Positions 5,636 through 59,676 of a stretch of DNA of 64,000 nt are shown one piece after another. Source of the stretch: Octopus vulgaris. Taxonomy: Eukaryota. The notes under the pieces are model-generated. The model ran no database searches. It saw only the letters and a list, made by a program, of their open reading frames with translations, and was not told the DNA's origin. The position numbers were made by a program, and so were the translations under genes. The stretch's first letter is position 1, and each line of letters opens with the position of its first letter. The stretch lies in NCBI GenBank assembly GCA_951406725.2, contig OX597816.1:18414001-18478000 (forward strand). Reading direction: 5' to 3'.

Positions 5636-5871
5636 TATACAAATTATAACTTAGGGCATCTACGAGTTACCACCATGCTGAAAATAACAGCCAGGATCTG
5701 ACTGCAAACCCAGAAATCCGGGATCTGGAATTATCCAGGAATTTTTTACTAGTTTTATTTTGTCTTTTTGTCTTCTCTCCTTGTGCTAAATGAACACTTA
5801 AGGTGGTTATAGAGTCAGATCCTGGCTGGTATTTTCAGCACGGCGTTATCTCGTAGATAACCTAAGTTATA

Positions 5872-5878
<7 letters not shown>
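5636..5878. mobile_element. Inverted-repeat element abutting (TA)n
   Basis: Arms 5636-5703 and 5813-5878 are imperfect reverse complements; (TA)n follows at 5877-5939. Confidence 0.7.
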
Positions 5879-12363: not shown

Positions 12364-13130
12364 ATACAGTGTACATTTCAACACATAATAGGTGACCATC
12401 ATAGGACACCTAGCATGCTAGGTGTCATATGATGGTAATCTCTTATGTGTTTAAATGTACATTGTATTTATATGAATAACTAGCAGCTAAGCCATGTTTC
12501 ACTTGGTCTGTTTGGATGATGTTGCTATGATCGTTTTTGGTTAGGCATAATCTATAACAGCATTTCTCAACCTTATCATTTCGGGTCTCCTGTTTCGATT
12601 TGCGCGTGTTTATGTGAGAGACAAAGTCCTCAAAGCACTCTACTGTCTAAATCCGACAATTCTACCTATTATGTATTTTCAATGAGAAACTGTAACTACA
12701 GATTAAGTTTATTAACCCCACAAAGAAGTGAAAGAAGAAAGACAGCAATAGCGAAAGTTTTGGCTGACTGTCATCCTGTACTCCCCTCGTTGCTAGCGAA
12801 ATGGTATATGCCGGCTGTGTGAGGAACTCGTTTTAATGGCAGAACAAACACGGGAATTCCATTAGAAAAGTTTTAATCCATTTTCTCGCTAACTATGGAG
12901 GCTATGAACTAAAAACACAAGCCGCATTCCAATCTATGCACCCGGCTTCATATGTGTGCCTTTCTTCACGCTAGTCCACGGAGCCGTTCGGCTCTGAACC
13001 TCAAGAAAGAATACAACGATCGCCCATGTCCAACTTATATTATACATATATAATCTGTTGACTTGTTTTCTACATGCTAGGCCACTGGTAGTAAACAATT
13101 CTAAATGTTTTTTCTTATCCTGATATTATA
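12364..13130. mobile_element. Second copy of the 9556 family, interrupted by a Helitron
   Basis: Hairpin 12364-12467 centred on CTAGCATGCTAG; 12460-12479 joined to 13049-13128 aligns to the reverse complement of 9556-9660. Confidence 0.75.
12480..13048 (-). mobile_element. Non-autonomous Helitron
   Basis: Minus-strand 3' end has an imperfect hairpin then CTAG; inserted between A and T without TSD, with the empty site GAATAA|TATAA seen in the paralogue near 9640. Confidence 0.7.
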
Positions 13131-13140
13131 TGTATATATA

Positions 13141-13427
13141 TCACCGTGACCGCCCAGACTATCAGATGTTGCTACACATCGCTGATCACATTGCGGTTCT
13201 CATTGTTTTAGCCTTCAAATGACGCCACCCCACCGGCTAAGCGAGCAGGCCGACAGAAGAACGAGTGAGAGAATTTGTGGCGAAAGAGTACAGCAGGGAT
13301 CGCCACCATCCCCTGCCGGAGCCTCGTAGAGCTCAATAAACACACAAAACACCCAGTCTGGGAATCGAAACCGCGATTATCCGACCGCGAGTCAACTGCC
13401 CTAACCACTGGTCCATTGCGCCTCCAC

Positions 13428-13428
<1 letters not shown>
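13141..13428 (-). mobile_element. tRNA-derived SINE family C (tail type 1)
   Basis: Head GTGGAGGCGCAATGGACCAGTGGTTAGGGCAG...GGTTTCGATTCCC. Confidence 0.88.
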
Positions 13429-13524
<96 letters not shown>

Positions 13525-13712
13525 ATTATATAAAAGGGCTTAGTAAAATAAATTACTTTGCCGCATACTGAACTCATTAGAAATAGCAGCTAAAAAAACT
13601 TTTTTAAAACTATCTCCAATACTTAAAGAAAATCTCTCTCGTATAGTGTTTGCTCAATTCAACTCACGAAAGTATGAGGGTAGAGACATTAAAAAATCAA
13701 ATGCAAAGGTTA

Positions 13713-13769
13713 TTTGAGAACGTACGTTTCAAGATTAGTCAAATCGACACTTCTATCATCAGCTCAGAA
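13713..13769 (-). ncRNA. Hammerhead-like motif, copy 1
   Basis: Reverse complement of 15014-15070. Confidence 0.6.
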
Positions 13770-14269
13770 CTCCCTGGTTTGGATTTGAAAACACTGAAAG
13801 CTGGAGCATACCCTTTCGGCCTGTTATCGCTTCTGAAGATCTGCTCAAAACTAACAGTGTTAGCAAATTCAAATATGCAAACGAAGAATTTCTGCTCTCC
13901 CCCTTCCACCAGCGTGGGTTAAAATCAGCAAACATTATGCTTTTTTTCGGTAAAATCCGAGGCATTTTATAGAGAGAGATGAATTATAATTTCAACAATT
14001 GAGGGTAAAATTAATTAATTAATCAATTTCACCAAGTATTCAGTATACAAAGGGACCATTTAAGGCGAATTCAAATTATTACATTATATAAAAGGGCTTA
14101 GTAAAATAAATTACTTTGCCGCATACTGAACTCATTAGAAATAGCAGCTAAAAAAACTTTTTAAAACTATCTCCAATACTTAAAGAAAATCTCTCTCGTA
14201 TAGTGTTTGCTCAATTCAACTCACGAAAGTATGAGGGTAGAGACATTAAAAAATCAAATGCAAAGGTTA

Positions 14270-14326
14270 TTTGAGAACGTACGTTTCAAGATTAGTCAAA
14301 TCGACACTTCTATCATCAGCTCAGAA
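14270..14326 (-). ncRNA. Hammerhead-like motif, copy 2
   Basis: Reverse complement of 15014-15070. Confidence 0.6.
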
Positions 14327-15013
14327 CTCCCTGGTTTGGATTTGAAAACACTGAAAGCTGGAGCATACCCTTTCGGCCTGTTATCGCTTCTGAAGATCTG
14401 CTCAAAACTAACAGTGTTAGCAAATTCAAATATGCAAACGAAGAATTTCTGCTCTCCCCCTTCCACCAGCGTGGGTTAAAATCAGCAAACATTATGCTTT
14501 TTTTCGGTAAAATCCGAGGCATTTTATAGAGAGAGATGAATTATAATTTCAACAATTGAGGGTAAAATTAATTAATTAATCAATTTCACCAAGTATTCTT
14601 TAAGTATTGGAGATAGTTTTAAAAAGTTTTTTTAGCTGCTATTTCTAATGAGTTCAGTATGCGGCAAAGTAATTTATTTTACTAAGCCCTTTTATATAAT
14701 GTAATAATTTGAATTCGCCTTAAATGGTCCCTTTGTATACTGAATACTTGGTGAAATTGATTAATTAATTAATTTTACCCTCAATTGTTGAAACTATAAT
14801 TCATCTCTCTCTATAAAATGCCTCGGATTTTACCGAAAAAAAGCATAATGTTTGCTGATTTTAACCCACGCTGGTGGAAGGGGGAGAGCAGAAATTCTTC
14901 GTTTGCATATTTGAATTTGCTAACACTGTTAGTTTTGAGCAGATCTTCAGAAGCGATAACAGGCCGAAAGGGTATGCTCCAGCTTTCAGTGTTTTCAAAT
15001 CCAAACCAGGGAG

Positions 15014-15070
15014 TTCTGAGCTGATGATAGAAGTGTCGATTTGACTAATCTTGAAACGTACGTTCTCAAA
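15014..15070 (+). ncRNA. Hammerhead-like motif, copy 3
   Basis: tgag-CTGATGA-taga..gtc/gac..tctt-GAAA-cgtacg-TT-ctca: 4-bp stem I, palindromic stem III, GUU triplet; stem II imperfect. Confidence 0.6.
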
Positions 15071-15356
15071 TAACCTTTGCATTTGATTTTTTAATGTCTC
15101 TACCCTCATACTTTCGTGAGTTGAATTGAGCAAACACTATACGAGAGAGATTTTCTTTAAGTATTGGAGATAGTTTTAAAAAAGTTTTTTTAGCTGCTAT
15201 TTCTAATGAGTTCAGTATGCGGCAAAGTAATTTATTTTACTAAGCCCTTTTATATAATGTAATAATTTGAATTCGCCTTAAATGGTCCCTTTGTATACTG
15301 AATACTTGGTGAAATTGATTAATTAATTAATTTTACCCTCAATTGTTGAAATTATA

Positions 15357-15410
<54 letters not shown>

Positions 15411-15414
<4 letters not shown>

Positions 15415-16064
15415 TTGTTATCGCCATATTAATATGGCATTCTTATAGATATAAGAATAATCGCTCCCGCTTGTCAGCTCCATGAGGCCACCGCCATCAA
15501 GATAGCTATTGATACACGATCTGTATCCATTATAACCTTCGAACAAGGGAGGTCAGCCGCTTCACACTGCCAGTCCGACAGCTACAGACGCGTTTCGGGG
15601 TATTGCCCCTTGTCAATGTAGCGCAGTCAGACCCGCAGGTGTCGCCACTGACGTCTCTGTTCCAAGGTTTCTATTTACCTAGTTTCAGTGGAATACATCC
15701 ACTTGTTTTAAATAATAGAAATATTAAAATTACTAAGTCTCTATAAAAGAGATTACGGCAGCGTTTACTGGAAATTAATTGTTATCGCCATATTAATATG
15801 GCATTCTTATAGATATAAGAATAATCGCTGCCGCTGGTCAGCTCCATGAGGCCACCGCCATCAAGATAGCTAGTTAGCGAAGGTTATAATGGATACAGAT
15901 CGTGTATCAATAGCTATCTTGATGGCAGTGGCCTCATGGAGCTGACCAGCGGCAGCGATTATTCTTATATCTATAAGAATGCCATATTAATATGGCGATA
16001 ACAATTAATTTCCAGTAAACGCTGCCGTAATTTCTTTTATAGAGACTTAGTAATTTCAATATTT
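15411..16064. mobile_element. Tandem plus inverted array of a ~364-bp unit with hammerhead, within (TA)n
   Basis: Unit 15411-15774, partial repeat 15775-15872, and an inverted arm 15878-16064 that crosses the unit junction; (TA)n on both sides. Confidence 0.9.
15581..15622 (-). ncRNA. Minimal type I hammerhead ribozyme motif, U3-A8 variant
   Basis: Sense gctaca-TTGACAA-gggg(caata)cccc-GAAA-cgcg-TC-tgtagc: perfect 6-bp stem I, 4-bp stem II, palindromic stem III, GUC triplet. Confidence 0.85.
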
Positions 16065-16237
16065 ATATATATATATAAATGCATACGAGTATGTATATCA
16101 ACATAAACATTAAAAAAATGTTCATAAACTTCTGCAACGATTATAAATTAGTGAAAACCATACTTGAATGGAGGGACTTAGTTTGGAGAATGGCATCTAG
16201 GTTTATACTAAATCTCTCATTGCATAACTTAGTTCAA

Positions 16238-16478
16238 CTCCAATTATTTGGATATATGAGAATCACAACGCACATACGTATATGTATGTATGTCATTACG
16301 TAGTTTTATTTCAATATTTCTTGCCAAAGCTGGTTTCTAATCTTAAATCCAAGCCTGTATGTATGTATCTCTCTATTTATCTATATACTTAACATTTACG
16401 GAGTATTAATTGAAACAACTGTAAGATATGATGATAAATTTGCTGTTAATAACAAACAACTATTAACTTCCCAATTTC

Positions 16479-16543
<65 letters not shown>

Positions 16544-17611
16544 TGTATAGATATCTATTTTTATATCCATAACTCTATATACATCTGTCTAAATGTCTGT
16601 CTGTCTATCTATCCATATATCTATCTTTATCTATCTAATTTCTTTCCCTTTCTCACAGTCCCTTTCCATTTATATCAATATACCGATCAGTATATGTATA
16701 TATAAAATACGAAAAAGAAAATGGTGATTTGAAACTTAACTGTTTATTATTAACAGCAATTTAATCATCATGCCTTACAGCTGTTTCAATTCATTTTCAG
16801 TAAGTATTAAGTAAATATTAAACTTATATGACCTGAGCATATCTTCAGGGGAAAAGAAACATACCCTTGGATGTGTTACATGTGTTTATGGATTCATTAC
16901 AGAATACTTAATATGGATTCATTATAATGAATCCATAAACACAAAACATGCAAGGGTATATATTTTCCCTCAACTCATAATATAAATTTAATGTATACTG
17001 AACATTTACTGAGTATTAATTGAAACATCTGTACGATATGATGATACATTTGCTGTTAATAATAAACAATTATTAAATTCCAAATCCCCATATATATATA
17101 TATATATGAATGTATAGATATCTATTAATATATCCATAAATCAATATATGTCTGTCTGACTGACTGTCTGTCTGTCTGTCTATCTGTCTATATATATATA
17201 TATATATATGTATGTATATGTATAGACATGCACACAAACATACATATATATAGAGAGAAAACTATATATGTTAGTGTATGTTTATGTGTTTGTATGTGCT
17301 ATATGTATAACTGTTATGTATTTATGAACATTTTCCTCCAAAATATTAATACTATTGCAACGAGTGCACCTCCAATTATTTGGATATATGAGAATCACAA
17401 CGCACATACGTATATGTATGTATGTCATTACGTAGTTTTATTTCAATATTTCTTGCCAATAGCTGGTTTCTAATCTTAAATCCAAGCCTGTATGTATGTA
17501 TCTCTCTATTTATCTATATACTTAACCTTTACGGAGTATTAATTGAAACAACTGTAAGATATGATGATAAATTTGCTGTTAATAACAAACAACTATTAAC
17601 TTCCCAATTTC

Positions 17612-17676
<65 letters not shown>

Positions 17677-18501
17677 TGTATAGATATCTATTTTTATATC
17701 CATAACTCTATATACATCTGTCTAAATGTCTGTCTGTCTATCTATCCATATATCTATCTTTATCTATCTAATTTCTTTCCCTTTCTCACAGTCCCTTTCC
17801 ATTTATATCAATATACCGATCAGTATATGTATATATAAAATACGAAAAAGAAAATGGTGATTTGAAACTTAACTGTTTATTATTAACAGCAATTTAATCA
17901 TCATGCCTTACAGCTGTTTCAATTCATTTTCAGTAAGTATTAAGTAAATATTAAACTTATATGACCTGAGCGTATCTTCATGGGAAAAGAAACATACCCT
18001 TGGATGTGTTACATGTGTTTATGGATTCATTACAGAATACTTAATATGGATTCATTATAATGAATCCATAAACACAAAACATGCAAGGGTATATATTTTC
18101 CCTCAACTCATAATATAAATTTAATGTATACTGAACATTTACTGAGTATTAATTGAAACATCTGTACGATATGATGATACATTTGCTGTTAATAATAAAC
18201 AATTATTAAATTCCAAATCCCCATATATATATATATATATGAATGTATAGATATCTATTAATATATCCATAAATCAATATATGTCTGTCTGACTGACTGT
18301 CTGTCTGTCTGTCTATCTGTCTATATATATATATATATATGTATGTATATGTATAGACATGCACACAAACATACATATATATAGAGAGAAAACTATATAT
18401 GTTAGTGTATGTTTATGTGTTTGTATGTGCTATATGTATAACTGTTATGTATTTATGAACATTTTCCTCCAAAATATTAATACTATTGCAACGAGTGCAC
18501 C
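16238..18501. repeat. Near-perfect tandem duplication of ~1.13 kb
   Basis: 16238-17369 is repeated at 17370-18501 with only a few substitutions and (TA)n length differences. Confidence 0.92.
16723..17088. mobile_element. Decayed palindromic element ending at (TA)n (duplicated at ~17865-18222)
   Basis: Left arm GGTGATTTGAAAC...TATGGATTCATTA mirrors the right arm TAATGAATCCATAAAC...CCAAATCCCC; an extra arm fragment lies at ~16385-16480. Confidence 0.65.
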
Positions 18502-21040: not shown

Positions 21041-21112
21041 TTTCCGAATATATTATTTGCTATTTCCTACATTTTATCTTCTGTAATAATAATAATAATA
21101 ATAATATATATA

Positions 21113-21512
21113 TTTCGAATTCATATTGTTATTTAGCCAATAAAAACACACGCACTATATTTGGTGTTATTTTGCTTCAGTGATATTTATTTTTTACATT
21201 AATCTTAATAATTTGAAGTTCTTTCGTCACACTCGTGACCGATCAGTGGTCCTTTGTTTTCTCTCACTTACTTGCTCTCCTACTAACCGTCAGCCATTTT
21301 GTATCAAAATGGCTGACGGTTAGTAAGGAGAGACACAAGTAAGTGAGAAGAAAACAAAGGACCACTGATGCGGTCACAGGAGTGTGACGAAAGAACTTTG
21401 GCCGAAATAAGATTAAGATTAATGTAAAAATAAATATCACTGAAGCAAAATAACACCAAATATATAGTGCGTGTGTTTTATTGGCTAAACTGGCAATATG
21501 ACCATTCCGAAA
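21113..21512. mobile_element. ~400-bp palindromic element with hammerhead-like motif in each arm
   Basis: Arms mirror about 21303. Plus strand 21359-21403 reads ggacca-CTGATGCG-gtcac/gtgac-GAAA-gaac-TT-tggcc, with a mirrored degenerate copy near 21215-21255. Confidence 0.75.
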
Positions 21513-21850
21513 TATAACAATATCTGTTTCAACACACGACTTCACATAAAATATCTTGCACAACAAATATTTAAACGTAATAATAATAATAATTTTCGAT
21601 ATATTCGTCTCGCACTGAGAACAGTCATTTGTAATTAATTTAATTTAATTCAATTAATTTTAATTATTCTACCATGTTATTTACATGTTTTAATATCGCT
21701 GTTTGAAAAGATAGCATACATATATTAAACTTCTTTTCAAATTTAACATCGTGTCTCCATCTTTTAACGATTTGTTGAGTTTCTATGGGGTACCTTTCCA
21801 TAAATTCTTATTACACAATATATTTACACACACACACACACACACATATG

Positions 21851-23654: not shown

Positions 23655-24252
23655 GAGGCGAGCTGGAAGAAACGTTAGCACGCCGACCGGAATGCGTAGC
23701 TGTATTTCGTTTGTCGTTACGTTCTCAGTTCAAATTCCGCCGAGGTCGAATTTGCCTTTCATCCTTTCGGGGTCGATAAATTAAGTACCATTTACGCACT
23801 GGGGTCGATGTAATCGACTGAATCCCTTTGTCTGTCTTTGTTTGTGTTCTCTGTGTTTATCCCCTTGTGAGTAGTAAAGAAATAGGTATTTCGTCTGCCG
23901 TTACGTTCTGAGTTCAAATTCCGCCGAGGTCGACTTTGTCTTTCATCCTTTCGGGGTCGATAAATTAAGTACATATTACGCACTGGGGGTCGATGTAATC
24001 GACTTAATCCGTTTGTCTGTCCTTGTTTGTGCTCTCTGTGTTTAACCCCTTGTGAGTAGTAAAGAAATAGGTATTTCGTTTGCCGTTACATTCTGAGTTC
24101 AAATTCCACCGAGGTCGACTTTGCCTTTAATCCTTTCGGGGTCTATAAATTAAGTACCATTTACGCACTGGGGTCGATGTACTCGACTTAATCCGTTTGT
24201 CTGTCCTTGTTTGTCCCCTCTGTGTTTAGCCCCTTATGGGTAGTATAGAAAT
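23655..24252 (+). mobile_element. SINE family A trimer
   Basis: One head plus three ~178-bp bodies joined at GAAATAG|GTATTTC; imperfect TSD TATTATCTTT...AAA. Confidence 0.92.
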
Positions 24253-25726
24253 ATATATTATCTTTATTTTCAAACCACGTGTATTTGCCAACAAATTTGT
24301 ATTTTGCTGTGTATCACATTTCGTCATATTATTTCTTCCTCAACATTCTCGGTAATTAAATTGGACATTGGTTGGAAGCTGCACATTCATAAAAGAAAGA
24401 AAACTATTCGCGACGTGCAGTCTTTTGTTTGTTAAGGCCTTTTGTTTATTATAAGTTTAATAGGCATTATTTGGGATAGAAATTATGATTCCGCCTACTG
24501 TTTAGCTACACTTCACATCTCTGTTTGAAATATAACTATGTTTAAGCAGTCAATGATTTTATGGGAGTATTTTTCAGAATGTTATGTTCAATATAAATAC
24601 ATTGCATTGAGAGTGATAATTCAGAGGACAATATTAAATGATCAGAAATTCAAACGAAACTACGTGGAAATAGCAACATATGAATTCAATAGAACATCTG
24701 CATATCCTCCTACACAAATTCATAGAATAAAATTACTTAAAATACCATATATTGTCAACTTACTAAAAATAACGTAAACCATTTATAATGAGTTTATGTA
24801 CTGTTAGCACATACACAGTAATCTAAAGTGAAATAGAAATGATATTTCCACAAATGTACATTCGAAATGACTATAAATTCGAGAATCGTTTAACGTAAAA
24901 TATTTGATTAATACGAGTATGATGTGTCTTAGGCTTTGTTAATCGCTAAATACGCATATATTTCTAGATTTATATTTTTAACACCATTTTCATCAGCGTT
25001 GGCATTTCTCTCTGAAAATCTCATTTAAGTTTAATAGAACAGTATACAATGCACTTTACAAAGAGGAGAATGAATAAATATCAAACTCTCGTCAATAAAT
25101 ACATCACTTGAAATTATGTGATACATAGGATATTATTTATCGAAATCTATTTTGTATGGTAGCATGGTAGCGAAGTAACGAAATATGCTAGATGTACGAG
25201 CAAAACTCAGAATATTTCAGTCACTAAACAGTATTAGCACACAGTAAATACTCAATCGCAACGTTTTGTATTTATTAAGGGTTATCTTTTCCCCAGTGCT
25301 TAGAACATAGTCTTTGCAATGAATCGGCTTATATTTACAAAATTGTAAGATCCGTAGATATATGACTTCAAATTACCAACGATGTATACTTAGAGTTGTT
25401 CGAAGAGTCTCTTATACAGCAGTCCACATATAGTAATTAATATAAGTGTAGGTATTAGGAACTGTAGCTGAGAATAAAGATATTCGAAGAAACCATAAAT
25501 CTTAACTTATAACTAATTGAATTATGCTTATATGAACATCAGAATGAAAAATAATGAAACACAAATCAAAACAGATGTAAAAGAAGACATAACCGAGGGC
25601 AATGAAGAACCGGACGTGTAGGATTTATAGGCAATAAAACACAATGGTTCGCCACCAGTCGGAGTGTAAATCAGTACAATTCTCCCAGGAGGATACATAT
25701 GGCATTATTCGTTACCCGTACTGATA

Positions 25727-27038: not shown

Positions 27039-27770
27039 TTGTCTGTATATCTCTCTATCTTTCTATATCTCTTTCTCTCTATATATATATATATTACTTT
27101 ATATGTTTATGTATGCATCTGTGTATGCATGTATGTGTGAGAGCGTGAGCATTTTTGCATGGATGTATTCTATGTTCTTACGTCTCTCTATACCATATTG
27201 CATCGCCTCTCTAATAACGTTACTCGATATTAGGCCGAACTCTAAACTAAACGATTCCAAAAGCGAACAAACTCATCCACGAATCATATATATGCCACAT
27301 AAAAAACATATTAATAACAATACATATTACTACCGGGATCGGTAAGTCAGACTGTGTGTCTCCCAAAATTGTGTTATCAAGTGCCTATATCAGAAATCAA
27401 TAGAACTATAAATATTGCTTTAATCCATTGCAACTGTGAATGATGACAAAATAACACAAGCGAGAGACTTATAATCCAATACATTCTTAGGCAAGTATCT
27501 ACTGTATGTGGACAGCTACAACTTATACCATTGTATTAAGTATTGGTTCATCGGTAGTTCAAGTCCAGCGCTTTGCATGTTTAAATGCCGTCGACACGAC
27601 TGCTAATAATTCGAATAATAACTTTGTGCATATTAATATGATTATACGGTTTACTGACGCCATGTAATATTGCACATCGAATTTTTTTTTTTTTATGGGA
27701 ACATGCTTCGAAATGCCCCATGATTAGTGAACGTGAAGATAAATATCAGTAATGTCGCGTGTTCATATAT

Positions 27771-28369
27771 ATTTCTTTACTACCCACAAGGGGCTAAACA
27801 TAGAGGGGACAAACAAGGACAGACAAACGGATTAAGTCGATTACATCGACCCCAGTGCGTAACTGGTACTGAATTTATCGACCCCGAAAGGATGAAAGAC
27901 AAAGTCGACCCCGGCAGAATTTGAACTCAGAACGTAACAGCAGACGAAATGCCTATTTCTTTACTACCCACAAGGGGCGAAACACAGAGGGGACAAACAA
28001 GGACAGACAAACGAATTAAGTCGATTATATCAACCCCAGTGCTTAACTGGTACTTAATTAATCGACCCCGAAAGGATGAAAGACAAAGTCGACCTCGGCG
28101 GAATTTGAACTCAGAACGTAACGGCAGACGAAATACCTATTTCTTTACTACCCACAAGGGGCGAAACACAGAGGAGACAAACAAGGACAGACAAACGGAT
28201 TAAGTCGATTACATCGACCCCAGTGCTTAACTGGTACTTAATTTATCGACCCCGAAAGGATGAAAGGCAAAGTCGACCTCGGCGTAATTTGAACCCAGAA
28301 CGAAACGGCAGAGGAAATATGGCTACGCATTTCGCCCGGCGTGCTAACGATTCTGCCAGCTCACCGCCA
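27771..28369 (-). mobile_element. SINE family A trimer with one TSD
   Basis: Three bodies and one head; TSD TGTCGCGT(G/A)TTCATATAT at about 27753 and 28373. Confidence 0.93.
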
Positions 28370-33659: not shown

Positions 33660-35287
33660 AAGGGGTTATGTTTCCGGTCTATATCAGCTTGATTGCTACG
33701 GGCCACATATTCGCCATGCAGAGTTTTTTGTTCCCACTTAGCAAAGGGTTCTCAACCGCATTTTGCTTTCCTATTGATTTCACCTTCTTTGCAACAACAG
33801 TTGCTGGCCTCCCATCATGCTGTTCAACTTAGGTACTATGCATAAACTCGCTTGAAAACTTTTTTGATCTCTTTAATAAAAAATGAAGCTTCTTCTTCTT
33901 ACATCTTTCATGATTTTCAACGAGCTTTAGCATCCAGTCGTTAGATTCTTCAATAATATCTGCCAATCCATTTGTGGTAGTGTTGTAAGAGATTCCAGAT
34001 TGGATCAATCGTCGACCTGCTTGAGCTCTGGGTAGGTAAAGACGATCTGCATCTGCCTTTGAGTGGTGCATCTTATTGCAAGTCAGCAGCTTACAGATTT
34101 TCCTGTCAACCTTCCTTATTTCGCTCAAATTCCAGTTCAACACTTTGAAACTGTAACTAACAACCGGAACTGCTAAGGAATGTTTAGCTAACACCTGGTT
34201 ACGAGCATTTACTCGGATTCTAGGACAGTTCGAACTCTCCTGTAACACTCCTTCCTGATCTTCTCTTTCATACTTGCATGCTGAATGCCAGAACCCTCAT
34301 TAATTCCGAGGTATTTGTAAGTTTGTTCCTGCTCAAATTCTTTTATGACTGTGTCAAAATCCTACACCACTGAATGTGTGGTCTTTAATTTTCTTTTCTG
34401 GAAAGTGGCCTTGTCACATTTATCAAGACCAAATTCCCTCCCAGTATCATCACCGAATGCTTTCACAGTATGTAGTAGTCCTTCAAACTAATTATCTTCT
34501 TTGCCATAGAGTTTTAAGTGATCCATATAAAATGGATTACTCATTTCCTTGTTGAGTTCACTTGCAAGGGGTATTAGAGCTATGCAGAAAATTATAGGTG
34601 AAAGTTAGTTACCTTGGAAAATGCTATTGTTGATATTAATATTTTTTGTAGACAACTCTCTATTAGAGTGCTATAATTGGAGATTCGTATTCCACATTGA
34701 CATGTGCTTGCGGAAACTTGAAATCATACGAGAAATTTTGAAGATATCCAGCGATTTCAAGATCTATGAATGCGGTATGCTGTGGAAGCATTTTTGTAAT
34801 CAATCCATGCAGAACTGAAATTTATGCGTTTGTTGTGACAATTCTCAAGGATCATGCAATTGATAAGAGATGATCTTTGCCTCGTCGGTACCCCATTTTG
34901 TTCAGTGGTGAAAATAAGGTTCCCTTCCATAAAATGGAAGTTAAAATTCTATACGTGGTAGATAGACAAGTTTCGGGACGATAGTTTTGGGGAAATTTTG
35001 TTTTATTATTTTTCTGGAGTAGTTAACCAATCCGGTGTCTTCGTAGAATCTCTCATAATTTCATTGAACTTAGTATTCATGTGCGCAGGGAACCGAGACG
35101 TGCCAGAAATGTGGCACCTTACCATTACCGGGGGATTTCTACTTATAATCCTCCATGAGTGTCATCTTAGGTCTTCTATTTTCATGTCTTCTCATGCTTG
35201 TTCTGTTAAGTTTTGGTAGGATCCATCTGTTCGTCTAATCCATTGTGAGTCTTTTAGTCACTCCAGATATTTTCCAGGAGTTTCAAA
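33660..35287 (-). pseudogene. Decayed R4/Dong-like retrotransposon RT region
   Basis: IFQGN.LSPIIFCIALIPL, YMDHLKLY, TYKYLGINEGSGIQHASMKE, MHHSKADADRLYLPRAQAGR; many stops and frameshifts; (TAT)n at 35288-35311. Confidence 0.9.
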
Positions 35288-35799: not shown

Positions 35800-38715
35800 G
35801 TTTTTTCCTTCTTTCTTCAAATTTTCTTCCATTTCTTGCCGAGTGTTTTCCATGCACCTAGGGCAGAGAAGCTCATTGTATGCATTCCCAGATTACGCGC
35901 GCAAATTCACTGATAAAATATGTATTTAAAAATTAATAGATAAATAAATTCATGGATGGATGTTATTTTCACAGCGATAGTGCTCTTCTTAGTACATGGG
36001 CCGCTCCAGTTAATACGATTTTTTGCACTTCTTGTTGGGATGGTAAGCCTGGAATCATTTTCAAATAGGTTTCAGTACCTTTTTTTATCATTCCTAGAGA
36101 TCCTACAATCACTGGTACTGTAGTCGCCTTGAGATGCCACATTTTTTCAATTTCTATTAGCAGGTCTTTATATTTACTAATCTTGTCAAATTCTTTCGCC
36201 GCTATATTGTGATCACGGAATACTCATGTCAATTAATAAACACATCATTTTTGTCTGATCTTTTATAATGATATCCGGTTTATTAGCTTTTATAGTCTTG
36301 TCGGTCTGCACGGGGAGGTCCCATAGAACGACACATTTTCTCCCTCAGTCACAGCTTCAGGATGATGTTTATACCATTGGTCAGCGGTTTTGATTTTATA
36401 ATGCCGACATATTGTCCAATGTAAATACTGGCCGACTCTGTCATGTCTTGCTTTATATTCTGCAGGTGCTAAGACTCTACCCTCTGAGATTAGGTAGTCT
36501 GTTTTTTCAATCTCATCGTTACAGATCGGCATTTTGGGTCAGCTCCATTTTTCATCACATTGGCTTGGTAGTTCCGGGTTAATAAACTTTGGTCTTGAGC
36601 AGCTAATATGAAACCTTCACTCTCTGCTTTTAGCCCTGAGCTTCGTAACCATTGGTGCATGTGTTTCTGGTCGACATCAGCTTGTTTGCTACGGGCCACA
36701 TACTTGCCATGGAAAGGTTTCTGTTCCCATCTGCTAGCTAAATTTTCATGTGCTTTTGTCTTTGCAATTAATTTTATTTTCTTTGCAGCTGCAGTTGGCG
36801 CATTTCCTTCAGCCTGCTCAATCTGGTGGGTATCTAAGAGATCAGCGGCGACGTTTTTTCTCTCTTTGAGAATAAAGTGAAGTTTTTTAGGTCTTTCATG
36901 TTTTTCAACAAGTTTTAGCATCCAATCGTTGGTTGCTTCAAGGTATTTGGCCAGTCCAGTTGTGGTGGTTTTGTATGTAAGTTCAAGCTGGATCAAACCT
37001 CGACCTCCCTGAGCTCTGGGAAGGTAAAGGCGATCCACGTCTGCCTTTGGATGGTGCATCTTATTACAAGTCAGTAGCTTGCGGATTTTTCTGTTAATTT
37101 TCATTATTTCACTGGTATTCCAGTTAATCACATTGAAGCTATAAACAACAACTGGTTCTGCTAAAGAATTTATGCCTAAAACCTTATTATATGCATTCAG
37201 CTCAGACTTCAGGCTTGCTCGAACTCTTCTATAACATTCTTTCCTCACCTTCTTTCATGCTTGCATGCTGGATACCAGAGCCTTCATTTATTCCTAGGTA
37301 TTTATAGGTTTGTTCCTGCTCAAATTCCTTTATTACTATTTCGACATCTAATTCGATTGAACTAGACTTTACCAATTTCCCTTTCTTAAAAGTCGCTTTG
37401 GCACACTTCTCCAGGCCAAACTCTATCCCGATATCGTCACTGAATCCTTTCACAGTATGTAATAATCCTTCAAGCTCTTCATCATCTTTGCCATATAGCT
37501 TTAAGTCATCCATATAAAATAGTTGGCTTATTTTCCTGTTGTTAATTTTGTAGCCATATCCTGTTCTATTCAGTTCACTTGAGAGTGGTATTAGTGCTCT
37601 GCAGAAAGTTAGTGGTGAAAGTGAGTCTCCTTGGAAAATTTAACAGTTTATGCTAATGTTTTTTGAGTGCAATACTCCATTAGAATTATATAATTAGAGC
37701 TTCGTGTTCCATAGAGACATATTATACTTTTAAAAATCTGAAATCACAGGAGAATTTTTGAAAATGTCCAGTGATTTCAGAATCCACGGATATGGTATTC
37801 TGTCAAAGGCTTTTTTATAATCAATCCATGAAGAGCTAAGATTTCTGCGCTTGTTATGGCAGTTGTCAAGGATCATGCGATTAATTAGGAGCTGATTTTG
37901 CATCCGTATGAGCCTCGTCTGCATCCTTTTTGTTCAGTAGGAAAGAGGTTATTCTCTTCCATAAACGTATATGTTTTCTCTACTAGAATAGATGTCAAAA
38001 TCTTATAGGTAGTAGATCAACATGTTATAGGCCGATAGTTTTTTGGGTCTTTCGTTTTGTTATTTTTGGGGAGGAGGTAAGTAATACAATTTGCCATCCA
38101 ATGTGGTGTTTTTCCCGTGTCTTTCATAATACTATTAAATAGTATTACTAACATTTTGTGTGCGGACGAGAGTGATGAGAGCCAGAAATTTGGTACTCTA
38201 TCAATACCAGGGGATTTCCATTTGTGAGCCTTCGTTAGTGCTCTCCTTAGATCGGCGATTGAGATGTCTTCCCATACCTGTTCTTGTAGATTTTTGTAGT
38301 CACCTTGGGTGCGTTTGATCTACTCTGCATTTTCATTGTATGGTTTCTCATCACTCCAGATCCCCTTCCAAAAGTTTTCAACTTCTTCCATTAGGGGTGG
38401 ATTTTCAATGGTTATTTTTTCTTTCCCTATTTCCCTGTAAAATGATTTGGCATTGGATTTGAACGTTTTATTTTGTTTGTAGAATTTGATTCTTTTCTCA
38501 AATCTGCGTATTCTCTGATATTTTGCTTGAACTTTTTGTTTAAGTGTTTCCTTCGCTGACATTAGTTCTTCTCTTGTTGAGTGACCAAATATTCTCACAA
38601 TCTTCCTGCCTTTTCTTGATCTTACATCATTTCAAGAGATTAGCTCAGTTAATATCGATAACTCCCTTCACAATAATTGAATTTCAGTTTCAATTCTACT
38701 CCTCCAGGTTGATTT
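35799..38715 (-). mobile_element. 5'-truncated R4/Dong-clade non-LTR retrotransposon (RT, CCHC, PD-(D/E)xK RLE), frameshifted
   Basis: WIDYKKAFD, IFQGDSLSP, YMDDLKLY, LYLPRAQGGRGL, degenerate CCHC, RHDRVGQYLHW, NKPDIII..IDMSIP, KYKDLLIEIEKMW..PVIVGSLG..VLRRALSL* (stop 35969-35971); (TAA)n on both sides. Confidence 0.95.
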
Positions 38716-51119: not shown

Positions 51120-51718
51120 TATTTCTTTATTGTCCCACAAGAGGCTAAACATAGAGGAGGCAAACAAGGACAGGTAAAGGGATTAAGACGATTATATAGA
51201 CACCAGTGCGTGACTTGTACTTATTTAATCGACCCCGAAACGATGAAAAGCAAAGTCGACTTCAGCGGAATTTGAACTCAGAACGTAACGGCAAACGAAA
51301 TACCTATTTCTTTACTACCCAAAAGGGGTTAAACACAGAGGGGACAAAGAAGGAGAGGCAAACGGATTAAGTCGATTATATCGACATCAGTACGTAACTG
51401 GTACTTATTTAATCGACCCCGAAAGGATGAAAGGCAAAGTCGTCCTCGGCGGAATTTGAACTCACAACGTAACTTCGGACGAAATACCTATTTCTTTATT
51501 ACCCACAAGGGGCTAAACACAGAGGGGACAAACAAGGACAGACATAGGTATTAAATCGATTACATCGACCCCAGTACGTAACTGGAACTTATTTAATCGA
51601 CCCCGAAAGGATGAAAGGCAAAGTCGTCCTCGGCGGAATTTGAACTCAGAACGTAACTTCGGACGAAATACCGCTAAGCATTTCGCCCGGCGTCCTAACG
51701 ATTTTGCCAGATCGCCGC
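51120..51718 (-). mobile_element. SINE family A trimer with one TSD
   Basis: Three bodies and one head; TSD GTTAGAATATATTATT at about 51104 and 51723. Confidence 0.93.
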
Positions 51719-54249: not shown

Positions 54250-54251
<2 letters not shown>

Positions 54252-54537
54252 AATTAAGGACTGAACACGAAAAAGTGGACAGTCAACATGCTAGATATAG
54301 ACGTCAAATCGCCATTCTCCACATGTTCTCAGATCAAACCCATGCAATAATGTTCGTTTTGATCTGAGAACATAATCTTTTGTGGAGAATGGCGATTTGA
54401 CGTCTATATCTAGCATGTTGACTGTCCACTTTTTCGTGTTCAGTCCTTAATTGGTATATATAAATATTTAATCTTCGGATTTTTTTAATATGTTAGACCA
54501 CTGGTTTTAATTGATAAATATTGATTTCTACCCTTAA

Positions 54538-54543
<6 letters not shown>
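54250..54543. mobile_element. (TA)n-flanked asymmetric inverted-repeat element
   Basis: Perfect ~70-bp arms 54250-54322 and 54381-54454, inner arms ATGTTCTCAGATCAAA, and a right extension ending TTCTACCCTTAATTAATT(AT)n. Confidence 0.85.
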
Positions 54544-59142: not shown

Positions 59143-59209
<67 letters not shown>

Positions 59210-59384
59210 GAATATTAGGGAATAAATCCAAATTTACAGGAAAAAATCAGATTTAGGATTAAATCCAATTTTATAGTAAAATATTATATAATATTAATTC
59301 GAGACAAAACCACTATTTTGCAAATCAAACAAGGAAATACTTAATCAATACATAAAAAAATTTTAATATAAAGTAAATAAACCG

Positions 59385-59428
59385 CCACTACAATTGTTTC
59401 ATGTATTCAAATGACATTCGTCAGGTGG
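59385..59428 (-). ncRNA. Minimal type I hammerhead ribozyme motif
   Basis: ccac-CTGACGA-atgtc..tacat-GAAA-caattg-TA-gtgg. Confidence 0.82.
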
Positions 59429-59511
59429 ATTTCCGATCTTCTAATCAGTTTTAATTTATGAAGTCATAAATTAAAACTTCATAAATTAAAACTGATTAGA
59501 AGATCGGAAAT

Positions 59512-59554
59512 CCACCTGACGAATGTCATTTGAAGACATGAAACAATTGTAGTG
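59512..59554 (+). ncRNA. Minimal type I hammerhead ribozyme motif
   Basis: cac-CTGACGA-atgtc(atttgaa)gacat-GAAA-caattg-TA-gtg; palindromic stem III and GUA triplet. Confidence 0.85.
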
Positions 59555-59637
59555 TTTATTTACTTTATATTAAAATTTTTTATGTATTGATTAAGTCTTT
59601 CCTTGTTTGATTTGCAAAATAGTGGTTTTGTCTCGAA

Positions 59638-59676
<39 letters not shown>

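Follow-up and report, generated by a model that had tools for sequence, protein, structure and literature searches.

What assembled a 364-bp unit, a piece of its direct repeat and an inverted arm between two runs of (TA)n, beside an unrelated 557-bp unit of the same layout? We followed up this question in the window, that is, the whole stretch of 64,000 nucleotides of Octopus vulgaris DNA analysed here. An earlier note on this DNA had described the unit and proposed that both families use one mechanism, which it left unnamed, at a repeated insertion hotspot. Our results indicate that the element is real, and we think it likely that it is a retrozyme-like non-autonomous element mobilised by a Penelope-like element (PLE). 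The mechanism left unnamed matches published PLE biology.

Layout of the 364-bp element

By self-comparison, the whole element (15410-16064) consists of a unit of 364 bp followed by its partial repeat (99 bp), 5 nt of filler and an inverted arm of 187 bp (Table 1). The layout given in the earlier note, with a unit, a partial direct repeat and an inverted arm crossing the junction, is thus borne out, and its start at 15411 was correct to within 1 nt. Tandem Repeats Finder placed the left (TA)n at 15353-15411, with 29.5 copies and one interruption; the spacer to the 557-bp element is ~53-57 bp, in agreement with the ~55 bp noted before.

Table 1. Features of the 364-bp element and its surroundings (positions in the window)
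Feature	Position	Strand	Basis or remark
557/558-bp hammerhead unit, same layout, tail ~98-102 nt	13529-15356	.	neighbour of the 364-bp element
(TA)n left tract	15353-15409	.	shared with right end of 557-bp element; putative target and primer for left arm
c1, full 364-nt monomer	15410-15773	- (hammerhead-sense)	period from direct repeat
Site A, 3' end of c1	15410	-	putative first RT start
Type I hammerhead, predicted	15572-15633	-	descriptor scans and fold
c2, partial direct repeat	15774-15872	-	last 99 nt of preceding monomer; pseudo-LTR-like partial tandem
5-nt filler at inversion point	15873-15877	.	junction sequence
Inverted arm, last 132 nt of monomer	15878-16009	+ (sense)	no hammerhead; includes 33 nt absent from c2
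9-bp helix, 15949-15957 with 16020-16028	within 15949-16028	+	fold and pair probabilities
55-nt tail, past site A into next monomer	16010-16064	+	ends at site B, putative second RT start
(TA)n right run, ~5 repeats	16065-16075	.	sequence; putative target and primer for right arm

The partial repeat c2 agrees with the monomer c1 at 97/99 positions (2 substitutions). The arm at 15878-16064 is the reverse complement of unit positions 1-132 plus 310-364; its first segment is identical to c1 at 129/132 positions, and its tail matches c1 15719-15773 with 2 substitutions. Copies within the element carry 5 substitutions and no indels in 473 copy-nt (a denominator summed by hand), and two alleles are common to c2 and the inverted arm and differ from c1. 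Tandem content is ~1.27 units with one hammerhead, and unit positions 133-309 are present once at the locus. No second copy of the unit was found by BLASTN in the 64-kb window, where the other matches were short internal palindromes or chance matches of <=46 nt. At the inversion point, the filler and its flanks may form a 4-bp fold-back, as in end joining with templated insertion.

Palindromes and long (TA)n tracts break easily and pose difficulties for assembly, and a local DNA accident or an assembly artefact has to be weighed, in which slippage and fold-back template switching at a cruciform-prone (TA)n, or a chimeric read, produced the repeats. The two alleles common to c2 and the arm would fit such an origin, as would the near-identical 1133-bp tandem duplication that begins 170 bp downstream; assembly problems have also been noted for PLEs by Craig et al. 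(PMC8557442). However, the arms differ by those 5 substitutions without indels, and the locus offers a contiguous forward template for only 154/187 arm bases, leaving 33/187 without one. Moreover, slippage accounts for neither the hammerhead, nor the fold, nor the same asymmetry in unrelated elements described below, and we regard this origin as very improbable.

Hammerhead motif, fold and coding content of the unit

The predicted hammerhead consists of a 6-bp helix I with a distal stem, a 4-bp helix II, GAAA, a self-complementary helix III and a GUC site. Located on the minus strand, it is read in the direction of the left (TA)n, which agrees with the outward direction claimed before. Cleavage is predicted after 15587 (GUC), 177 nt from site A, and the helix III duplex has an energy of -7.5 kcal/mol. 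Loop II, as we take it, resembles canonical tertiary-contact loops. The core UUGACAA at 15616-15610 is the U3-A8 covariant of C3-G8, which is natural and active in hammerheads (PMC3088659) and also occurs in PLE hammerheads of Schistosoma (PMC4209133).

A relaxed descriptor, tuned after the motifs had been seen, gave six matches when both strands of the window were scanned: the 557-bp element has three, the 364-bp element has one, and two lie at 59208-59641. The background mean was 0.18 matches per window in 60 block-shuffled windows; the 557-bp motif was caught once one unpaired base beside helix II was permitted. All six matches face outward and lie within three TA-flanked foldbacks. Dinucleotide shuffles of the element matched in 4/5000 cases, and in 0/5000 with the observed stem lengths. 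Two of the four candidates of the first scan (4184 and 50581) had been dropped because they had no palindromic helix III. Rfam at gathering score returned 0 matches over the 64-kb window, thus no hammerhead, and by E-value 15 matches over 13400-16200, with 0 hammerheads; the miRNA models at the top of the E-value matches were rejected, since they reflect the foldback hairpin.

Inverted repeats with TA flanks may also suggest a MITE or foldback type of DNA transposon that duplicated its TA target. Against it stand a 55-nt asymmetry between the ends, a direct repeat inside the element at the 364-bp period and a ribozyme motif that is strand-specific, and we find this origin scarcely credible.

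Folding sets the unit apart from its background. The linear sense monomer has an MFE of -137.6 kcal/mol, compared with -91.2 +/- 4.8 for 100 shuffles (z -9.6), and the circular sense monomer -135, compared with -86.5 +/- 6.1 for 60 shuffles (z -8.0 and -8.3). The predicted circle is stable and highly self-paired, with the hammerhead at the tip of the rod and free to fold. The antisense strand also folds strongly (z -6.8). Among background windows the median z was 0.0, and 1/58 reached -6.5; this strongly folding window (8 shuffles) lies near 37501-37864, at the upstream edge of a LINE remnant.

With a GC content of 43%, the unit has a longest stop-to-stop frame of 77 codons and no ORF. Pfam matched 0/8 frames of the unit, and frame translation together with Pfam found no RT or GIY-YIG ORF in the 364-bp element. 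For the 77-codon frame, one protein-database search returned no relative; three matches from a second search, to a copper monooxygenase-like protein, a DUF7507 repeat protein and a low-complexity repeat, were all repetitive and were rejected, their scores being sums of short matches. No PLE ORF was recognised in the window among 46 ORFs of >=110 aa read by eye, three of which were LINE-like and scanned with Pfam. No tRNA genes were found. On the minus strand, 33669-35026 and 36490-38080 hold two decayed LINE-type RT remnants, 71% alike and with a Pfam RVT_1 match; named relatives of one LINE fragment, 48-57% identical to it, come from cnidarians and a shrimp, which points to an animal host. 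A SINE-like family with an internal period of 184-185 bp is found at 23702-24253, 27770-28319 and 51120-51672 and in many dispersed partial copies, and presumably resembles octopus SINEs.

Footprint of a probable PLE-type insertion

According to Craig et al. (PMC8557442), PLE insertions combine a partial tandem with a 5'-truncated copy that lies inverted next to it, and one end carries a tail of 30-40 bp; Naiads target (TA)n, where target-site duplications are hidden, and a microsatellite bias is mentioned for Neptune. The same picture is repeated in PMC8969392. Frangieh et al. (PMC11167929) reported that a Poseidon protein cuts AT-rich DNA on both strands and extends each of them, that its RT starts at two internal RNA sites whose interval corresponds to the tail, and that its template is mainly RNA uncut by its hammerhead.

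The PLE-type features present at our locus are a pseudo-LTR partial tandem (99 bp, at the 364-bp period), a 5'-truncated copy lying inverted beside it and a one-sided tail, which at 55 nt is PLE-like in kind and longer than the published range. Both ends of the element abut TA runs, for which the background chance of a gap of <=5 nt is 1.4% per end, and any target-site duplication would be masked by (TA)n. Since the antisense strand of each arm begins at a TA flank, both RNA 3' ends point outward. Moreover, the left arm of 463 nt crosses the cleavage site, and hence its template, if the element is RNA-derived, was an uncleaved multimer or a circle.

An RNA might instead have been inserted by a LINE enzyme through twin priming, which also yields inverted 5' parts, and LINE RT remnants do occur in the window. 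However, the element has no poly(A) end, and both arms duplicate the same RNA region, one arm overrunning the 3' end of the other by 55-98 nt in five unrelated foldbacks. The tail, in addition, is called unique to PLEs by Frangieh et al. (PMC11167929). We therefore consider insertion by a LINE enzyme highly unlikely and continue with a PLE enzyme.

The 557-bp neighbour and other foldbacks

The neighbouring element carries three hammerheads, and its inverted arm contains a whole unit. The two units share no visible similarity, as had been noted: 52 and 69 of 300 shuffles under scheme 1, and 17 and 85 of 300 under scheme 2, reach the observed scores. Homology among the 364-bp, 557-bp and 59-kb elements was likewise rejected, with nothing convincing in 12 comparisons (best 6/300 shuffles).

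The identical architecture claimed for the two units holds in part. Their layout is the same, and in both a type I hammerhead whose helix III is self-complementary lies 177-190 nt upstream of the first end. However, the 364-bp element has ~1.27 units and one hammerhead, with none in its inverted arm, and a right TA run of only ~5. The hammerheads also differ in type: that of the 364-bp unit has U3-A8, a 4-bp helix II and GUC, that of the 557-bp unit a CUGAUGA core, a helix II that is long and irregular, and GUU as its site. The middle junction has a 5-nt filler in the former versus a 3-nt overlap in the latter. The proposal of one mechanism gains support, because the PLE footprint, outward 3' ends, the position of the type I hammerhead and a tail-pairing helix (0/300 shuffles each) are found in both.

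Copies within the 557-bp element differ by 1 substitution in 1829 (again summed by hand) and one homopolymer indel. Compared with 5/473 in the 364-bp element, this gives a Fisher P of 0.002, or 0.005 when the homopolymer indel is counted. Unless the templates differed in heterogeneity, this contrast indicates two insertion events with the 364-bp element being older. Thus, as judged from these substitutions, the two elements are probably separate insertions, the 557-bp element being the younger, and the divergence contrast disfavours co-insertion of both in one event. In the 557-bp element, a homopolymer (at 13600 and the equivalent sites) has one base more in the outer pair of copies than in the inner pair; this pattern, which has a 1-in-3 chance of arising anyway, faintly suggests that both arms copied one heterogeneous linear multimer.

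The neighbour also bears on another possible origin, in which an autonomous full-length PLE inserted, here or at the source, and lost its ORF by internal deletion, so that the 364-bp unit is a one-off product. Every footprint feature would also be expected of an autonomous PLE, unit positions 133-309 occur only once at the locus, and Li et al. (10.64898/2026.07.22.740005) derive retrozymes from PLE terminal repeats. On the other hand, an ORF remnant was absent in the 8 frames scanned, the whole monomer folds as one unit (z -8), and the neighbour repeats its short unit in both arms, which indicates that short templates are mobilised in this genome. We judge such a deletion to be unlikely, and prefer a non-autonomous element that was short when it inserted.

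As for the hotspot, our data do not support it beyond a general preference for (TA)n. Nine foldbacks were taken from the self-BLAST list (spacers < ~410 nt; a duplicate of the 16.7-kb foldback and SINE-SINE pairs were left out), and 8/9 have an arm <=8 nt from an AT microsatellite, compared with 1.4% for a random position to lie <=5 nt from one. The chance that two insertions share one of 35 TA tracts is 0.08-0.12 for three hammerhead-bearing elements and 0.26-0.59 for 5-7 foldbacks. A general target preference therefore suffices, and a hotspot is unnecessary.

Several of these foldbacks deserve a description of their own. At 59208-59641, a third TA-flanked foldback has a minimal type I hammerhead in both arms, outward-facing, and a tail of ~87 nt in the left arm; it is unrelated in sequence to the 364-bp and 557-bp elements and has no partial tandem. 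At 54250-54540 and 21109-21577, one arm abuts an AT microsatellite and the other is followed by ~86 nt and ~61 nt, respectively, up to the next microsatellite, which resembles a PLE-like tail. More decayed foldbacks with one arm abutting (TA)n lie at 5642-5874, 12367-12464 and 16723-17089. A degenerate-core scan of 7 regions found no hammerhead in the foldbacks at 5.6k, 12.4k, 16.4-17.1k, 21.3k and 54.3k. The 1133-bp tandem duplication (16231-18501; 3 substitutions, 5 gap columns) includes the old 16.7-kb foldback and is either a recent duplication or an assembly artefact.

A helix pairing the tail near sites A and B

In the predicted fold, the 9-bp helix of the right arm pairs the tail back upstream, so that site A lies in a loop that is AU-rich and unpaired; site B is preceded by a hairpin. 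Its energy is -17.0 kcal/mol, compared with -6.6 +/- 2.0 for shuffled tails, none of which (0/300) reaches it. The 557-bp unit has the same arrangement with a different sequence. In a test devised after the first fold was seen, and with the strand polarity of the 21-kb and 54-kb elements assumed from the tail, the best helix was reached by 0/300 shuffled tails for the 364-bp, 0/300 for the 557-bp, 1/300 for the 54-kb, 63/300 for the 21-kb and 204/300 for the 59-kb element. The helix is thus present in 3/5 elements tested and absent in 2/5.

Proposed route of insertion

Taken together, it seems quite probable that the locus arose from a non-autonomous retrozyme-like RNA that was reverse-transcribed by a PLE enzyme from both target strands, with two offset starts and an uncleaved multimer or circle as template. 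A source locus of head-to-tail units would be transcribed, and the hammerhead, probably as a dimer via the palindromic helix III, could cut the transcript to monomers, which may circularise. A PLE endonuclease (an RT/GIY-YIG protein acting in trans) would then nick both strands of the (TA)n; this step is modelled on PAc biochemistry, and the TA flanks are seen at the locus. The 3' end of the top strand would prime cDNA at site A and that of the bottom strand at site B, 55 nt further 3' on the RNA. Two different outer ends with outward polarity are present in the layout, and we infer the priming from them. The left cDNA would have run for 463 nt, more than one monomer, through the cleavage site, and the right cDNA would have ended after 187 nt. 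The two truncated cDNAs would finally have been joined end to end, head to head, by a repair that left the 5-nt filler seen at the junction. Later, the 557-bp element would have entered the left TA flank by the same route. A 364-bp copy with one hammerhead could not release a monomer alone.

Several results weigh against this route: the window holds a single copy of the family, no PLE ORF was recognised among those read, Rfam gave no hammerhead and our descriptor was tuned to the motifs, the tail exceeds the published length, the tail-pairing helix is missing from 2/5 elements, and the antisense strand folds well too. One further observation counts against an RNA region copied twice, which predicts that the inverted arm equals c1, namely the two alleles that the arm shares with c2. 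Copying the region twice hence requires either that c1 mutated twice afterwards or that the hairpin underwent internal conversion. In accordance with the former, one of the two alleles private to c1 breaks the 9-bp helix, which suggests a later mutation in c1.

Implications

Each architectural part of the locus has already been published for PLEs, and there is no new mechanism here. What may be new is evidence at the level of an insertion linking retrozymes to PLEs, and the tail-pairing helix common to both units. The retrozyme-PLE link has so far been drawn from shared hammerheads, co-occurrence and pseudo-LTR homology (PMC7229834; 10.64898/2026.07.22.740005), and the preprint itself states that evidence on the life cycle is limited (10.64898/2026.07.22.740005). 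The terms 'tail' and 'target site' have 0 occurrences in its main text. No retrozyme-sized unit with a PLE tail and inversion appeared in the titles and abstract openings searched, a scope outside which lie most subscription journals, Repbase and supplements.

An ORF-less unit of retrozyme size with the PLE-specific tail and inversion provides evidence of the kind that has been lacking, and its footprint lends itself to a genome-wide count. Extending from this locus, we tentatively propose two things jointly, and regard them as possible rather than probable: that animal non-LTR retrozymes spread by PLE target-primed reverse transcription (TPRT) from two internal starts, beyond local tandem amplification alone, and that a signal for the PLE enzyme, independent of sequence, is common to unrelated passenger RNAs. 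Such a signal might be the tail-pairing helix that leaves site A in an AU-rich loop, followed by a hairpin before site B, as predicted for the 364-bp, 557-bp and 54-kb elements. The 364-bp unit would also be a small natural template for the in vitro PLE system, and, if our reading is true, a 364-nt natural substrate with which to probe template choice by PLEs and the use of circle versus multimer.

Comparison with known systems

Penelope elements and hammerheads have been annotated in a squid (PMC6962438). Compared with PLEs as described in PMC8557442 and PMC11167929, the 364-bp element shares the partial tandem, the inverted truncated copy and the one-sided tail; it likewise sits in an AT microsatellite, has its hammerhead near the 3' end and would have been copied through the hammerhead site. 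Unlike them, it has no RT or GIY-YIG ORF, its period is 364 bp and not kilobases, its tail is 55 nt versus 30-40, and its hammerhead has canonical helix sizes versus the minimal PLE form. Naiads, as described in PMC8557442, lack canonical hammerheads, unlike the 364-bp unit. Non-autonomous Chlamys PLEs such as MRC1 (Craig et al. 2021, PMC8557442) are similar in their pseudo-LTRs and head-to-tail insertion via a PLE partner, whose 3' end these non-autonomous elements resemble; in the same description, Chlamys PLEs differ in being green algal, mostly without hammerheads, and inserted at (CA)n or (C)n targets.

For the ribozyme, the minimal hammerhead of the Schistosoma PLE Cercyon (Cervera and de la Pena 2014, PMC4209133) shares the U3-A8 core and palindromic helix III with our unit. 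However, in the PLE minimal hammerheads of that description helix II is long, helix I is short and position 9 is followed by an additional base. The 364-bp unit has none of these features; the 557-bp unit looks closer to the minimal form. The same source describes paired opposite-strand hammerheads 100-700 bp apart (PMC4209133), and the 557-bp and 59.2-kb elements are likewise paired.

Metazoan non-LTR retrozymes have a non-coding monomer of 150-450 bp (350-390 bp in mussel), GC <50% and strong self-pairing (Cervera and de la Pena 2020, PMC7229834), traits also given in PMC7761336. Li et al. (10.64898/2026.07.22.740005) argued that the retrozymes of animals derive from PLEs and are non-autonomous, basing this on co-occurrence and pseudo-LTR homology. 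The 364-bp unit resembles non-LTR retrozymes in its size, GC content, non-coding monomer, self-pairing, head-to-tail repeat and proposed PLE mobiliser, and also in its type I hammerhead with a 6-bp helix I, 4-bp helix II and short palindromic helix III. It differs in that 1.27 units with one hammerhead do not make an array, and in its U3-A8 core; unlike the descriptions of retrozymes in PMC7229834 and 10.64898/2026.07.22.740005, our element has an inverted copy with a tail in (TA)n. An active retrozyme locus is defined by Li et al. as >=2 consecutive units, each with a hammerhead, compared with the one hammerhead and 1.27 units found here. Since one defining feature of each class fails, we file the locus neither as an active retrozyme locus nor as an autonomous PLE; it works like the daughter insertion of a retrozyme.
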